4,110 nt of DNA from Escherichia coli. GTDB lineage: Bacteria; Pseudomonadota; Gammaproteobacteria; Enterobacterales; Enterobacteriaceae. The DNA is taken from assembly GCF_013315695.1 (NCBI RefSeq), contig NZ_CP054359.1; one strand, written 5' to 3'. The notes under the pieces were generated by a model. It worked only from the letters and a program-made list of their open reading frames with translations. It ran no database searches and had not been told where the DNA came from. Below are positions 60 to 4,110 of the stretch, one piece after another (within the stretch, counting starts at the first letter, position 1; each line of letters starts with the position of its first letter). Both the position numbers and the translations under genes were made by a program.

Positions 60-71
60 GTTTTCCACAGG
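60..71 (+). promoter_or_regulatory. DnaA-box-containing 12-bp repeat, copy 1 (GTTTTCCACAGG)
   Basis: TTTTCCACA at 61-69 fits the relaxed DnaA box consensus TTWTNCACA. The same 12-mer recurs at 156-167 and a near copy (GTTATCCACAG) at 352-362. Confidence 0.5.
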
Positions 72-167: not shown

Positions 168-184
168 CTCGCCGTTAAGTTTTT

Positions 185-226
185 AGATCTTGTTTTTAAG
201 ATCTTGTTTTTAATACTTGTTTTCGG
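185..226 (+). repeat. 14-bp tandem direct repeats AGATCTTGTTTTTA (two exact copies plus a degenerate third), AT-rich, each exact copy carrying a GATC site; candidate DNA-unwinding element of oriV
   Basis: Exact copies at 185-198 and 199-212, degenerate copy ATACTTGTTTTCGG at 213-226. GATC at 186-189 and 200-203. Lies in a T-rich stretch just upstream of the iterons. Confidence 0.55.
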
Positions 227-267
227 ACCGAAATTTCTTATGGAATTCAAGGGATTAGATTGCTATA

Positions 268-350
268 GGTGAACATTTCGGGGGTAAAGGTGAACATTTC
301 GGGGGTGGTTAGGTGAACATTTCGGGGGTAAAGGTGAACATTTCGGGGGT
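268..350 (+). repeat. Iteron array of oriV: four direct repeats of GGTGAACATTTCGGGGGT
   Basis: 18-bp core exactly repeated at 268-285, 289-306, 312-329 and 333-350, with alternating spacers AAA and GGTTA (periodicity 21/23/21 bp, about two helical turns). Sits directly upstream of a Rep_3-type initiator gene. Confidence 0.9.
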
Positions 351-352
351 GG

Positions 353-361
353 TTATCCACA
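353..361 (+). promoter_or_regulatory. Consensus DnaA box TTATCCACA adjacent to the last iteron
   Basis: Exact 9-mer match to the high-affinity DnaA box consensus, 2 bp after iteron 4. Confidence 0.65.
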
Positions 362-447
362 GAAAATGGTGAATTAAAAAAAAATGATTGCACCAATTGA
401 TGGGGTGAACTAGTTTTTTTTTAGTTTACTTTAGGTGAGGGTGCTCA
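362..447 (+). promoter_or_regulatory. rep promoter/operator region with partial iteron motifs and ribosome-binding site
   Basis: Partial iteron half-sites GGTGAA (368-373) and GGTGAAC (404-410), plus an imperfect inverted copy TTGCACC (388-394). Possible -35 TTGCAC (389-394) and -10 TAGTTT (411-416), both weak. Shine-Dalgarno-like GAGG at 437-440, 7 nt before the ATG at 448. Confidence 0.4.
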
Positions 448-1149
448 ATGGTTGATTTGATAGCTTACAAATCCAATGCCTTAGTCGAAGCCAGCTACAA
501 GCTCACGTTACAGGAGCAGCGTTTCCTGTTGCTGTGCATTAGTCGATTACAGTCAGGTGTTGATGCTCCTCCACCTGAATTACAAAAGACCATGACTATT
601 ACGGCTGTGGAGTTTTTTAATTCATTTCCTGACATGGGAAGAAACCATGCCGAAGAAAAGTTACAGGAAGCGATCGATCGTCTGTGGGACAGGTCGATCA
701 TTCTTAAGGATGGTGAAAAACGCGAGGAGTTCCGTTGGATCCAGTATCGGGCGCAGTACCTGAAAGGCGAAGCAAAAGTTCAAATAACTTTCGCAGATGC
801 TGTAATGCCGTACTTAACGCAATTAAAAGGGCAATTCACAAAAGTTGTAATTAAAAACATATCTAATTTATCAAAGAGTTATAGCATCAGAATATACGAA
901 ATCCTCCAACAGTTCCGTAACACAGGGGAGCGGATGATTTCTCTAGATGATTTCCGCAGCATGCTACAACTGGAAGATAAATATAAAGATTTCAAGACGT
1001 TAAATAGAGCCCTCATAAAACCGGCAGTGGCGGAACTGAATCAAAAAAGCGATCTGGCCGTAACGGTTGAGACAATCAAGAAGGGGCGCACTGTCGTAGC
1101 CCTGCATTTTCGCTTCAAGGAAGACAAACAGATCAAGATGACGATCTAA
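448..1149 (+). CDS. repA: Iteron-binding plasmid replication initiator, Rep_3 (RepA/RepE/pi-like) family, 233 aa
   Basis: Complete ORF, ATG to TAA (1147-1149). The translation has the hallmarks I recall for Rep_3 initiators such as pPS10 RepA: an N-terminal ...SNALVEASYKLTLQEQRFLLLC... segment and a C-terminal ...YSIRIYEILQQF...ISLDDFRSMLQLEDKY...ELNQKSDL... segment. Located immediately downstream of the cognate iterons. Lower GC than the mob module. Confidence 0.85.
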   Translation: MVDLIAYKSNALVEASYKLTLQEQRFLLLCISRLQSGVDAPPPELQKTMTITAVEFFNSFPDMGRNHAEEKLQEAIDRLWDRSIILKDGEKREEFRWIQYRAQYLKGEAKVQITFADAVMPYLTQLKGQFTKVVIKNISNLSKSYSIRIYEILQQFRNTGERMISLDDFRSMLQLEDKYKDFKTLNRALIKPAVAELNQKSDLAVTVETIKKGRTVVALHFRFKEDKQIKMTI

Positions 1150-1168
1150 AATCGATTCTAAGGCATCT

Positions 1169-1194
1169 AAAACGCGCGCTGACGCGTTTTTTTT
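1169..1194 (+). terminator. Rho-independent terminator for rep
   Basis: Perfect 8-bp stem AAAACGCG (1169-1176) / CGCGTTTT (1183-1190) with a 6-nt loop, followed by a further T-run, 8 T in all across 1187-1194. Begins 20 bp after the rep stop codon. Confidence 0.6.
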
Positions 1195-1256
1195 GTGTAA
1201 GGTATGCGATGGTACTACGAATCACAAAAACATCGTCAGAATCGCTCTCACGAGCT

Positions 1257-1282
1257 AAAAAAATCCCCCATATGCGGGGGGA
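1257..1282 (-). terminator. Rho-independent terminator for mobA (minus-strand orientation)
   Basis: G/C stem CCCCC (1265-1269) / GGGGG (1276-1280), extendable to 6 bp, with an ATATGC loop. On the minus strand the hairpin is followed by a 7-T run (complement of A 1257-1263). Lies about 117 nt downstream of the mobA stop. Confidence 0.55.
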
Positions 1283-1324
1283 AGAAACTATGCGGAGATT
1301 ATCTAGTTTGTTGTGTGTGCTTAT

Positions 1325-1353
1325 TGACGTTCATCCCTGTCATGTGAACGTCA
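1325..1353. repeat. Inverted repeat TGACGTTCA / TGAACGTCA (9-bp arms, 11-bp spacer) in the mobA 3' untranslated region
   Basis: Left arm 1325-1333, right arm 1345-1353, exact reverse complements. Flanked by reiterated CATG/ACATGA motifs (1341-1369). Function unknown. Confidence 0.5.
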
Positions 1354-1398
1354 CATGAACATAACATGATGTTAAACAAAACAAAATATTGTGCACAT

Positions 1399-3558
1399 TC
1401 ACTGTGACCAACCGCGATCGTGCCTCCTCTCGGTGGCGTGTGTTCGTGCATCTTCCTCGCGCCGCCATTCGTCCCAGGTACGATTAAAACCCAGCGAGCG
1501 GAACAGATGATCCGGCTGTTTTTCTGGTGTATTGACGGCAGCAAAAAGCGGTGCCTCACGGGTTTTCAGATGAAACTCCATAAGTTCCGGTGCAGGTGAT
1601 ATGTGGCTGTCTGCATCGTGATTGACGGCAACACCATACCCTGCATACCGTAACCCCTTGTCCGTCAGCGCACTGATGACCAGATGCCTGTTATCGGCTG
1701 AGGGAACGGCAAACGCGGGATACAGCGTGCCATTAAGCCGGACAACGCCGCCCAGAGAGTCATCCACGCCCATGACCAGCAAAAGCTGAAGCTGGCGGGT
1801 TTCCCGGTCGACAGAACTCATTACCGGCATCAGCGTCGGTGGCAGACGTCCCTGCGTAAAATCCACCTTCCTTGCTGCCAGTGATGGCATGGCTGGCTGG
1901 CGGTCTTCTCCAAGACAGAAAAACTCCGGCCATGTCTTCGGCTGGCGGAGATTGCGGGTATGTTGTGGCCATGTCTGGCAAACCTGCGTCAGCAGTTGCT
2001 CAAAGGTCGCAGAGGAATAAACACGTTGCAGTGGTGGATGTTGACCGATTTCGCTTCGGTCACAGATATAACCACTCCTGTCACGCATTAAATCAACACG
2101 CTCAAAGATTCTGGTGCGGTATTTCTCCAGCTCGTTCCCCCAGAGCGTATATTCTCCGTTCCGGTTGTGAAGCAGAAGGTAACTGGTCATTTCCCCGTTA
2201 CCAGGCATGGGGGCCTCGCCATACCCCGTAACGACTGCTCTCAGTACCCCTGAATCCATAACGGCATTGTCATTTTTCCTGAGCTGCTCCGCTCGTCGCT
2301 CCGCGCGACTACGTTCTGTATCCTCCAGCTCCTTCCGGCGCAATTCCTCTTCACGTTTAAGCAACTGGGCTCTGAGAGCTGCAAGGCCGGATGCCCCCCA
2401 CTGCTGCCACTGTGTTTCAAATTCCGTCTGACTCGCGGGAATGTCCTGTTTCTCCACCTTCCGGTAATGCTGTCGCAATTTTTCCATTTGCTGGCTCAGA
2501 GACTGAATTTTTCCCTGCTCACTACGGTATTCCGGTGCAGCCCATTGCATCAGGGGAATACGGGAAAAACCGGACGAAAACGGCGATGATTTTTTCAGGC
2601 TGGCAGCATGGCTCATCGCTTCCTTTCGTTCGGTGTTCAGCTCTTCCCAGCGTCTGCGCGTCGCCTGCATATCTGTCATCATCGACATGGCATTACTGGT
2701 GAGTTTCCATGCCGCGTTACTGTCCTTCGGCAACGCTTCGATGATGTCACGTAGTGTGTACGAAGTTGCGTTGTCAGGAAGCTCAATATTCAGAAGGTCA
2801 GCCACACGGCGGGCAGGCTCTGTCAGCCCGCTGTTCCTGAGTTCGGTACGGAAAATCTGTATTTCCAGGCTAAGCCTGTTAATCAGACGATTCTGTTCGC
2901 CGCGTTCTGTTTCGATACCGCGTGTTTCCATCGCACAGGCAGACTTTCCGAGGTGAATACCAGGCGTTTTCTCAAGCCCCTGTCGCTCGTATGAACGATG
3001 GTCTATCTCTTCCTGATAACCGGCGTTCGCCAGTGCCCTGTTTGCATGGTCAGCCCATGATGCCCGCCACGTCTCGGCATGTGTCCGGTCGTTCCAGTCC
3101 CTGACCTTTCCACCGAACCCCGCAGGTCCGACAGCCCTCGTGGTCAGCATGATGTGCGCATGGGGATTTGTTTTATCCATGTGATGGAACGCCACATCAG
3201 CAATCATGCCCTGACTGACAAAGTTTTCTCTGACAAAGGCGAGAACGGTTTCCCGTGCGGCATCCTGCGGCAGTTCACGGGGGATGGCGAGTTCAATTTC
3301 CCGCGCAAGTTGTGAGTTCTTCCGACGTTCGGCCTTCTCAACGGCATTCCAGAGTTCGGTACGGTTCGTACACCAGGCAGGGGCGGTGGCGGGGGACAGA
3401 ATCACAGCCTCAGCCACACCGCTTTTGCGGGTGTAGTCGTGAGTCAGTCCGGTACGCTCATCAAGCATTAGTGAACCGGAACGATAGGCAGCAGAAGCAA
3501 CGGCGCTGTAGCCGTTGCTTCTGGAGATGATTTTCATGCTGAGATGATAAATCGCCAT
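1399..3558 (-). CDS. mobA: MOBQ-type mobilization relaxase MobA with C-terminal RepB'-like primase domain (relaxase-primase fusion), 719 aa from the conserved MAIYHL start
   Basis: The N-terminus MAIYHLSMKIISRSNGYSAVASAAY closely matches RSF1010/R1162 MobA (MAIYHLTAKTGSRSGGQSARAKADY), including the catalytic Tyr25 (codon 3484-3486). Histidine-triad metal-binding motif HHMDKTNPHAHIML and conserved WADHANRAL...IDHRS...GLE..PGIHLG are present. A central E/R/Q-rich predicted coiled-coil follows. C-terminal motifs ERVDLMRD, LLLVMGVDDSL and HLFRSLGFNRT resemble RSF1010 RepB' primase segments (ERFDIGVRD, LVLVDDLSEF, HYGRLAGFTNRK) as I recall them. Start chosen at ATG 3558 rather than the ORF-track start at 3663. 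Approximate domains: relaxase 2886..3558, linker 2181..2885, primase-like 1399..2180. Confidence 0.85.
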   Translation of the reverse strand: MAIYHLSMKIISRSNGYSAVASAAYRSGSLMLDERTGLTHDYTRKSGVAEAVILSPATAPAWCTNRTELWNAVEKAERRKNSQLAREIELAIPRELPQDAARETVLAFVRENFVSQGMIADVAFHHMDKTNPHAHIMLTTRAVGPAGFGGKVRDWNDRTHAETWRASWADHANRALANAGYQEEIDHRSYERQGLEKTPGIHLGKSACAMETRGIETERGEQNRLINRLSLEIQIFRTELRNSGLTEPARRVADLLNIELPDNATSYTLRDIIEALPKDSNAAWKLTSNAMSMMTDMQATRRRWEELNTERKEAMSHAASLKKSSPFSSGFSRIPLMQWAAPEYRSEQGKIQSLSQQMEKLRQHYRKVEKQDIPASQTEFETQWQQWGASGLAALRAQLLKREEELRRKELEDTERSRAERRAEQLRKNDNAVMDSGVLRAVVTGYGEAPMPGNGEMTSYLLLHNRNGEYTLWGNELEKYRTRIFERVDLMRDRSGYICDRSEIGQHPPLQRVYSSATFEQLLTQVCQTWPQHTRNLRQPKTWPEFFCLGEDRQPAMPSLAARKVDFTQGRLPPTLMPVMSSVDRETRQLQLLLVMGVDDSLGGVVRLNGTLYPAFAVPSADNRHLVISALTDKGLRYAGYGVAVNHDADSHISPAPELMEFHLKTREAPLFAAVNTPEKQPDHLFRSLGFNRTWDEWRREEDARTHATERRHDRGWSQ

Positions 3559-3602
3559 TTCTGCCGTAATGCCTTTTTGCAGTTTTCTTTCAGCCCCGCA
3601 GG

Positions 3603-3650
3603 GCGCACACAATCGAACCGAAGGTGAGATTGTATAAGTGCGCACTTCGT
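3603..3650 (+). other. Candidate origin of transfer (oriT), IncQ/MOBQ-like: imperfect inverted repeat with GAA loop followed by nic-core TAAGTGCGC
   Basis: Imperfect inverted repeat ACAATC-GA-ACC / GGT-GA-GATTGT (3609-3633) with a central GAA loop, followed 2 nt later by the 12-bp perfect palindrome AAGTGCGCACTT (3636-3647). TAAGTGCGC (3635-3643) matches the RSF1010 nic-region core GTAAGTGCG^CCCT. Sits between divergent mobA and mobC, on the strand antisense to mobA as in RSF1010. Predicted nic after G3642 on the + strand. Confidence 0.6.
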
Positions 3651-3699
3651 GATTTCTGCGCATTATGCCAGCTCAGTTTTTAAACTACCAGTGACGAGC

Positions 3700-3705
3700 T
3701 AAAAT
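3700..3705 (+). promoter_or_regulatory. Candidate -10 element (TAAAAT) of the mobC promoter
   Basis: 5/6 match to TATAAT, 30 bp upstream of the mobC ATG. The upstream -35 is poor (T-rich, around 3677-3682). GGAG Shine-Dalgarno at 3725-3728, 7 nt before the ATG. Confidence 0.3.
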
Positions 3706-3735
3706 GCGATTTTTCACCGCGCACGGAGTTACATC

Positions 3736-4026
3736 ATGAGCAGAACACTCGAACAGAAAATTGCCGAAGCTGAAGCCAGATTGCAGCGTCTGAAGGCAAA
3801 GAGCCGGAGCCTGGACACAGCGCAGAAGGTCGTTGTAGGTGCTGCATTGCTGGCAAAGGTCAGAAAGCCGGAGGAGGTGCAATTGCGCGCCTGGTTACTC
3901 CAGTTCCTGAAGGCAGAGGTGACACGGCAGGCTGATGTGAGCAGGATACAGCCGTTGATTGACGAACTGAACGCGTTGCCAAAACCCGTCCCCAAAGGCG
4001 TGTCAAAAAACGGCCAGCAGGCGTGA
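3736..4026 (+). CDS. mobC: Mobilization accessory protein MobC-like (relaxosome component), 96 aa
   Basis: Complete ORF, ATG to TGA (4024-4026), with a good RBS. Small protein with an N-terminal charged helix (AEAEARLQRLKAKSR) and the motif KVVVGAALLAKV, resembling RSF1010 MobC (about 94 aa, ...RKVLVGAMILAKV...). Divergent from mobA across the oriT, which is the IncQ arrangement. Confidence 0.7.
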   Translation: MSRTLEQKIAEAEARLQRLKAKSRSLDTAQKVVVGAALLAKVRKPEEVQLRAWLLQFLKAEVTRQADVSRIQPLIDELNALPKPVPKGVSKNGQQA

Positions 4027-4110
4027 ATGCACCATCCGCTCGCCGCAGCCCCAGCGACCGAGCGTTAGCGAGCGAGTGGGCGAGGAAGCGGAAAAGCTGC
4101 TGCACCAAAA

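Follow-up and report, generated by a model that had tools for sequence, protein, structure and literature searches.

Evidence for a Sog-type C-terminal module, and against a primase, in the relaxase of a small MOBQ41 plasmid from Escherichia coli

The 4,110-nucleotide stretch of Escherichia coli DNA considered here (NZ_CP054359.1, hereafter the window) encodes a relaxase, MobA, whose C-terminal part had been read in a first-pass annotation as a RepB'-like primase belonging to an RSF1010-like mobilization module that was joined to a Rep_3 iteron replicon. Our analyses indicate with high confidence that MobA is without a primase and that its C-terminal module is homologous to the C-terminus of Sog (Sog-C). 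The role that such a primase might play on a theta replicon is thus a question without an object. The window is a complete circular plasmid, and it is almost certainly a cryptic mobilizable member of the MOBQ41 (pIGWZ12) family, which has already been described. Taken as a whole, the explanation that we give slightly better than an even chance is that of a MOBQ41 plasmid lacking a primase, in which the Sog-C tail of the relaxase would be recognized by the I-type conjugation machine.

Primase families were looked for at several levels. Pfam and NCBIfam profiles applied to MobA at permissive thresholds returned no primase family, the Toprim models of Pfam included, and the last 249 residues alone matched nothing. 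When all PDB chains were searched with the MobA sequence, only two relaxase domains were detected, and a profile of the C-terminal module detected nothing in the same database. When MobA was compared by BLASTP with the RepB' domain of an IncQ1 plasmid (a relative of RSF1010, found by tblastn), the best E-value was 1.8. An AlphaFold model of MobA residues 431–719, built from a 14-sequence alignment, had a mean predicted local distance difference test score of 79.8 and was confident over residues ~510–710. In the model, a single helix lies against a barrel of about ten strands. Foldseek searches with this model gave nothing in PDB at E ≤ 0.001, and the AFDB50 matches were limited to MobQ relaxases and to the C-terminal ends of proteins of the Sog type. 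Primases of either the archaeo-eukaryotic (AEP)/RepB' or the Toprim kind were absent from all Pfam, NCBIfam, PDB, and Foldseek results for MobA, and the predicted beta-barrel is a module without a solved relative.

An RSF1010-type MobA, whose RepB'-like C-terminus primes the transferred strand in the recipient, would fit the IncQ relationship of the relaxase domain, MobC, and the core of the origin of transfer (oriT), as well as the length of MobA, since 719 residues is close to the length of RSF1010 MobA. However, neither the family, sequence, and profile searches nor the RepB' comparison gave any support to such a relaxase-primase, the beta-barrel fold has no AEP or Toprim match, and the homologous part of Sog lies ~580 residues downstream of the Toprim domain of Sog itself. 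We therefore consider this assignment to be already refuted at the level of both sequence and fold, with hardly any probability left to it.

The relationship to Sog, on the other hand, is strong. MobA residues 439–698 were aligned by BLASTP with residues 947–1231 of the Sog protein of R64 (1,255 amino acids) at 44% identity (E-value 6e-67), and the identity is 72–73% over MobA residues 589–698. At the DNA level, mobA and sog are 78% identical over 241 nucleotides, and MobA reaches 320 bits with a profile of the module (A1). R64 Sog contains a DUF5710 domain (residues 8–59), a Toprim_3 domain (266–365), and an LPD7 domain (775–862), and the short form SogS is the C-terminal 844 residues of SogL (PMC6112013). 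The Sog-C module (Sog residues 947–1255) is therefore present in both SogL and SogS, far from the primase. In other words, what had been taken for a primase, the C-terminal 280 residues of MobA, corresponds to the non-primase end of IncI1 Sog. There is no Pfam model for the Sog-C module. MOBQ4 relaxases have been described as having "low homology to SogL primases" (PMC6856555), a phrase which understates the relationship and leaves the part of Sog unnamed. Our comparison is sharper in that it identifies the relaxase tail as a strong homolog of the non-primase end of an exported protein. It was also observed that residues 412–946 of R64 Sog (gene at 41573–45340 of locus L004), which separate the primase from the Sog-C module and are absent from MOBQ4 relaxases, are extremely acidic, with a net charge of about −64 and an isoelectric point (pI) of 4.3.

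The module begins with a first sub-domain that precedes the barrel. In two distant Sog-like proteins (P0066, residues 766–842, and P0074, residues 1045–1142), this sub-domain is matched by the NCBIfam MobP1 relaxase model through the C-terminal end of the model (E-values 7e-13 and 1.5e-13, respectively). The first sub-domain is therefore also a common tail of MOBP relaxases, and in MobA of the window it is reduced to ~45 residues.

To examine the distribution of the module, 1.84 billion representative proteins were searched, and 80 relatives were recovered. Among the relatives read over their whole length, the module is always located at the extreme C-terminus, either of Sog-like proteins of ~1065–1423 amino acids or of MobQ relaxases. 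In PLSDB it was detected in 2,582 records, 1,904 of which are conjugative and 631 mobilizable. Four primase loci were inspected (R64, a Klebsiella plasmid with an I-type mating pair formation system (MPF_I), an Enterobacter plasmid, and an IncK2/Z plasmid), and all of them lie in the traJ-icmT-primase-dotI-dotH operon of I-type systems. With the module profile, no match was obtained in the stretch of R751 Tra1 that was examined, which includes TraC and TraI, or in the mobA-repB stretch examined from an IncQ1 plasmid. The idea that IncP primases share the module, which would have fitted the helper activity of RP4, was dropped after this negative result for the examined stretch of R751.

Different parts of MobA have different closest relatives. 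Over residues 589–698, where R64 Sog is so similar, the sister MOBQ42 relaxase is only 40–59% identical, whereas over residues 438–588 the order is reversed (33–43% for MOBQ42 versus 22–39% for Sog). A similar pattern was found in a relaxase lineage from metagenomes (P0054), whose relaxase domain is 70% identical to that of the window while its C-terminal module is 77% identical to the IncK2/Z variant of Sog and only 23% identical to the module of the window. In a neighbor-joining tree, the relaxase modules occupy two separate places among the primase modules. We infer from these patterns that relaxases and helper sog genes probably exchange the module by recombination.

What the module does may be approached through published work on helpers and on Sog. 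The best helpers of MOBQ4 plasmids are the MPF_I plasmids R64drd11 and pCTX-M3 (PMC6856555); mobilization is poor with RP4, R751, and R6K, and none was seen with F, R27, R388, and pKM101 (PMC6856555). Both the cis action of the relaxase and the mobilization by MPF_I helpers come from experiments on members of the family (PMC6856555). SogL reaches recipients in hundreds of copies, independent of DNA transfer (PMC8406263), and both forms of Sog are transferred (PMC6112013). Possibly, the I-type (Dot/Icm-like, MPF_I) machine accepts Sog by way of the Sog-C barrel. MOBQ4 relaxases would have acquired this module and would still exchange it with the sog genes of helpers, and a DNA-bound relaxase or relaxosome bearing it would then be accepted by the I-type machine as well, so that strand-bound MobA would be carried into the recipient by the type IV secretion system of the helper plasmid. 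As a recognition element, the module would explain why MPF_I helpers have been reported to be preferred. We give a little less than an even chance to the proposal that Sog-C is a helper-matched docking or export module. We also tentatively propose that the barrel may be a portable, helper-specific recognition domain that has repeatedly been captured from, and is still exchanged with, the primase gene of I-complex helpers (IncI1 here, IncK2/Z in another relaxase lineage). If so, the tail of the relaxase, rather than the relaxase itself or oriT, would set the helper range. Different relaxase lineages do bear the variants of different I-complex helpers.

Several points weigh against this docking proposal. 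MobA of the window lacks ~45 residues of the first sub-domain that are found in Sog proteins, and its extreme tail is unlike the ...SPGR ending that Sog proteins have in common. The literature searched neither proposes nor tests a link between the module and secretion and mentions only the low homology to SogL primases. RP4, whose mating pair formation system is of the T type (MPF_T), also mobilizes MOBQ4 plasmids (PMC6856555); since no such module was detected in the searched portion of R751, a related IncP plasmid, the module is not strictly required for every helper. Finally, no MPF_I helper is present among the plasmids (L010–L013) of strain E166, the host of a plasmid identical to the window. 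This strain carries an IncF plasmid (MPF_F), an IncI2 plasmid (MPF_T), an IncN/R/X1/Y hybrid, and a 6.6-kb MOBP plasmid.

Two other functions were considered. Sog proteins have been speculated to coat and stabilize the transferred strand (PMC6112013), and both kinds of module-bearing protein travel with or to the transferred DNA, so the module might bind or protect the single strand or aid establishment in the recipient without being a docking signal. However, with a pI of 6.9 in MobA and 6.0 in Sog the module is not basic, which speaks weakly against DNA binding, and we regard this role as unlikely. Alternatively, MobA might bind the Sog protein of the helper through the shared barrel, be exported together with it, and borrow the priming activity of SogL. 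The high identity between the barrels of MobA and helper Sog, together with the match of relaxase modules to distinct Sog variants, is what a homotypic interface would favor, and large quantities of Sog are produced and exported (PMC8406263). Yet oligomerization of Sog-C is unsupported, and loss of sog lowers the transfer of R64 by only a factor of about ten (PMC6112013), so Sog cannot be an essential carrier; this alternative seems quite improbable. If the module is instead a docking or export signal, it would provide a testable basis for the helper specificity of very common small enterobacterial plasmids and a handle on the choice of protein substrates by I-type conjugation systems.

The remainder of the plasmid agrees with the published family. 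The MOBQ4 relaxase family was defined by Garcillan-Barcia et al. 2019 (PMC6856555) and comprises two subgroups that have a common mobilization module and unrelated replicons (PMC6856555). MOBQ41 plasmids carry a Rep_3 replicon, their prototype being pIGWZ12 (4,072 bp), and MOBQ42 plasmids carry a ColE2-type replicon plus a colicin operon (PMC6856555); pIGWZ12 and MOBQ41 are treated by Zaleski et al. 2006, 2015 and Garcillan-Barcia et al. 2019 (PMC6856555). In the window, mobA (− strand) and mobC (+ strand) diverge with a hairpin and a nick core between them, and a Rep_3 initiator gene is preceded by iterons, an AT-rich region, and DnaA boxes, as in the Q41 subgroup (table 1). E. coli plasmid p.E166-P5 (NZ_CP032071.1) and one Salmonella plasmid match the window at 100% over its full length. 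In PLSDB, 603 records match the window, and 396 of the 603 cover at least 80% of it; nearly all of these 396 are 4.06–4.09 kb in size, come from E. coli, Salmonella, and Shigella, and are typed as mobilizable, MOBQ. Searches of the window detected no Rfam family and no sigma-70 promoter.

Table 1. Coordinates of predicted features in the window.
Feature	Position	Strand	Description
DnaA-box-like site TTTTCCACA	61–69	+	Repeat family; identical second copy at 157–165
AT-rich region, three 13–14-bp repeats (GATCTTGTTTTTA-like)	179–223	+	Repeat family; identical in pIGWZ12-type plasmid L002
Four 22-bp iterons, core AGGTGAACATTTCGGGGGT	266–353	+	Exact direct repeat, 2 × 44 nt = 4 × 22
Consensus DnaA box TTATCCACA	353–361	+	Abuts last iteron
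rep	448–1149	+	Rep_3-family initiator, 233 aa, WH1 + WH2; Pfam Rep3_N 1.2e-35, Rep3_C 9.6e-21
Terminator-like hairpin, then T-run	1169–1190	+	3' of rep
Terminator-like hairpin, then T-run	1264–1283	−	3' of mobA
mobA, whole gene	1399–3558	−	719 aa
mobA, C-terminal Sog-C-like module, aa 439–719	1402–2244	−	Beta unit 439–485; helix + beta-barrel ~510–710; not a primase
mobA, middle region, aa 215–438	2245–2916	−	No Pfam, NCBIfam, or PDB match
mobA, relaxase domain, aa 1–214	2917–3558	−	Pfam MobA_MobL, residues 18–213, 1.7e-70; NCBIfam MobQ
oriT region	3559–3735	.	Between divergent mobA and mobC; hairpin 3609–3633; nick core TAAGTGCGC 3635–3643 (+)
mobC	3736–4026	+	Relaxase accessory protein, 96 aa

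The relaxase domain of MobA is well supported. MobA scores 263 bits against the NCBIfam MobQ model (cut-off 200), and all six published catalytic residues are in place (Y25, E87, E89, H125, H133, and H135). The closest solved relaxases are NES of pLW1043 (4HT4, 1.2e-27) and MobA of R1162 (2NS6, 8e-10). The reading frame of mobA stays open upstream as far as an ATG at 3663, which would give a protein of 754 amino acids, the added stretch (3559–3663) running over the oriT hairpin and nick core. Because homologs and RefSeq start MobA at MAIYHLS (position 3558), this extension is probably untranslated. MobC shares 92% identity over 83 amino acids with the protein that RefSeq names MobC in the pIGWZ12 type, and 36% identity with RSF1010 MobC (E-value 3e-7). 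It is 12 amino acids longer than the pIGWZ12-type protein, and its last 13 amino acids differ, partly by way of a 36-bp insertion at 3986–4021. RefSeq labels the mobC product of the window merely as a hypothetical protein.

The oriT of the family was mapped between mobA and mobC (PMC6856555). In this interval of the window, the IncQ-like nick core TAAGTGCGC is found, which occurs once in the whole window versus 0.03 expected, and the nick is likely to be positioned at this core. An arrangement of hairpin followed by core can also be read in the oriT sequence of IncQ1; this comparison was made by reading the sequences, as MAFFT left the nick cores unaligned. MobA, aided by MobC, would nick oriT at the hairpin and core. 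Of the RSF1010-like mobilization module that had been proposed, the relaxase domain, MobC, and oriT hold as IncQ relatives, if distant ones, while MobA itself is not a relaxase-primase of the IncQ type; the family is MOBQ4 and not MOBQ1. Several plasmids of 2.1–2.7 kb from Salmonella and E. coli match the window only in the oriT core (3585–3652, 81–93% identity), for example a 2,738-bp Col(MP18) plasmid (locus L015, 411–466) whose sole annotated gene is rep. Such plasmids seem to carry a MOBQ4-like oriT without a relaxase of their own, and MobA could serve them in trans.

The replicon was correctly recognized in the first-pass annotation as an iteron replicon of the Rep_3 theta type with DnaA boxes. 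The initiator has both winged-helix domains (WH1 and WH2), and tandem iterons adjoin its gene. NCBIfam assigns it to a RepM/RepE-like family, and RefSeq names it replication initiation protein. A weak Pfam RepC match (E-value 0.0046, 42 residues) corresponds to residues 69–110 of the Rep_3 protein and overlaps the Rep3_N match. No IncQ strand-displacement replicon (repA helicase, repC initiator, and a vegetative origin (oriV) with ssi sites) was detected in the window, in which rep is the sole replication gene. The pattern TTWTNCACA matches three times in the window (61–69, 157–165, and 353–361) versus 0.41 expected; the first two boxes are both kept in the oriV of the pIGWZ12 type, for which four boxes have been published (PMC6856555). 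The AT-rich region upstream of the iterons is probably the DNA-unwinding element of oriV. Its repeats resemble the oriC 13-mer GATCTnTTnTTTT. The iterons are likely the binding sites of Rep and the incompatibility determinant, a role that has been reported for the iterons of pIGWZ12 (PMC6856555); theta replication has also been reported for that plasmid (PMC6856555). Replication would then start with binding of Rep to the four iterons beside the DnaA boxes and the AT-rich 13-mers and proceed in the theta mode with host proteins.

The rep/oriV allele of the window is rare. Only seven PLSDB records carry it at 99% identity or more, and all others are 60–80% identical. In comparison with pIGWZ12-type plasmid L002 (window 266–353 and 448–1149 versus 3043–3130 and 3226–3927), the iteron core has been rewritten (AGGTGAACATTTCGGGGGT in the window versus AGGTAATATGATTTAAGGT), while the layout of four 22-bp units, the 13-mers, and the DnaA boxes have been kept. 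Rewritten iterons together with a diverged Rep look like a coupled switch of Rep/iteron specificity, and the allele possibly represents a new incompatibility type within the family. A 32-kb plasmid of the insect symbiont Arsenophonus nasoniae (NZ_CP123538.1, 28877–29061; H157) is 82% identical over 186 nucleotides to window 202–387, where the AT-rich repeats and iterons of oriV lie; the remainder of the query (1–1150) was without a match to this plasmid in the hit table. Between the convergent rep and mobA genes, window 1150–1398 is non-coding and 87–96% identical to pIGWZ12-type plasmids; it holds the two convergent terminator-like hairpins and small open reading frames at 1204–1347 and 1209–1358 (47–49 amino acids). 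A fourth hypothetical gene, usually unannotated, is mentioned for the family backbone (PMC6856555).

The contrast in guanine plus cytosine (GC) content between the two modules, estimated earlier at ~43% for rep against a GC-richer mobA, was borne out by measurement (rep 42.7%, oriV region (1–447) 42.1%, mobA 54.8%, and mobC 55.7%). A relative that is ~90% identical overall shows the same split (rep 42.3%, mobA 54.8%). Between rep and the mob genes, GC differs as much at second codon positions (31% versus 46%) as at third positions (48% versus 57%); the contrast is therefore partly one of amino-acid composition. It is present in both family members measured, and by itself it gives no date of acquisition.

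Against L002, the window is 92–100% identical over ~1100–3900 (from the 3' end of rep through mobA and oriT and across most of mobC), 55–80% identical over 1–1100, and ~70% identical over 3900–4110, where the insertion in mobC is located. The drop from ~95% to ~70% relative to pIGWZ12-type plasmids falls inside the 3' end of mobC. The mob module was also found on a 6.6-kb colicin plasmid (L014) with a ColE2-like Rep unrelated to Rep_3 and on a separate 5.7-kb plasmid (L006) with a major facilitator superfamily transporter gene. The GC contrast might reflect long-standing constraints on composition in a stable, old pairing without any recent acquisition, Rep_3 genes and iteron origins being AT-rich and the mob module sharing the composition of I-complex tra genes. 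The equal contrast in the close relative, the joint occurrence of both modules in ~400 records, and the codon-position pattern, which implicates amino-acid composition alongside codon bias, are all in line with this. However, the mob module is also carried by other plasmids such as L014 and L006 (PMC6856555), and the unequal identity of the rep and mob modules within the family, with sharp breakpoints near 1100 and 3900, indicates that module exchange or very unequal divergence occurred. We thus regard a long-undisturbed pairing as rather unlikely. The mosaic backbone is real, but both it and the occurrence of the mob module on ColE2 replicons have been published before (PMC6856555). Of the earlier proposal, the joined modules and their difference in GC content are confirmed, and the primase is rejected.

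Among the checks proposed with that annotation, profile searches recovered the MobA_MobL and Rep_3 families and no RepB'-type primase in MobA, and the search for plasmids with only one of the modules found the mob module on the ColE2-like colicin plasmid. The lack of RepB' similarity in the C-terminus speaks in part against the proposal, as does the occurrence of both modules together in a large family (PMC6856555), although their composition is not uniform there.

Comparison with known systems places the plasmid as follows. It shares with pIGWZ12 and other MOBQ41 plasmids its size (~4.1 kb), the gene set rep/mobA/mobC, an oriT between divergent mob genes, and an oriV with iterons, an AT-rich region, and DnaA boxes. 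The DNA of the mob module is 92–100% identical (94.7% to one pIGWZ12-type plasmid), MobA is 96–99% identical at the protein level, and the relaxase domain is 97% identical, whereas the rep/oriV region is a diverged allele (~75% at the DNA level, with Rep 82% identical; the rep module is 77% identical to that of the plasmid with the 94.7% mob identity). In relation to Sog (R64, ColIb-P9, and the Sog-like "Pri/TraC" of other MPF_I plasmids), the module forms the extreme C-terminus in both proteins, but MobA lacks the DUF5710, Toprim, and LPD7 domains and the very acidic middle part of Sog and has a relaxase instead. The MOBQ42 colicin plasmids (ColE9-J type, CP122739.1) have the same mobA-oriT-mobC layout, with a relaxase domain that is 84% identical and a MobC that is 86% identical. 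They differ in having the unrelated ColE2-like Rep and a colicin/immunity/lysis operon, and the middle and C-terminal parts of their MobA are only 38–41% identical to those of the window (38% for the middle region). With RSF1010/R1162 (IncQ1, MOBQ1), the window has in common the MOBQ relaxase fold and motifs, a homologous MobC, divergent mobA and mobC, and an oriT composed of a hairpin followed by TAAGTGCGC. Unlike RSF1010, it has no RepB' domain, no mobB that could be found, and no repA/repC strand-displacement replicon; its MobA ends in the Sog-type barrel, and the relaxase domain is closer to NES of pLW1043 than to MobA of R1162.

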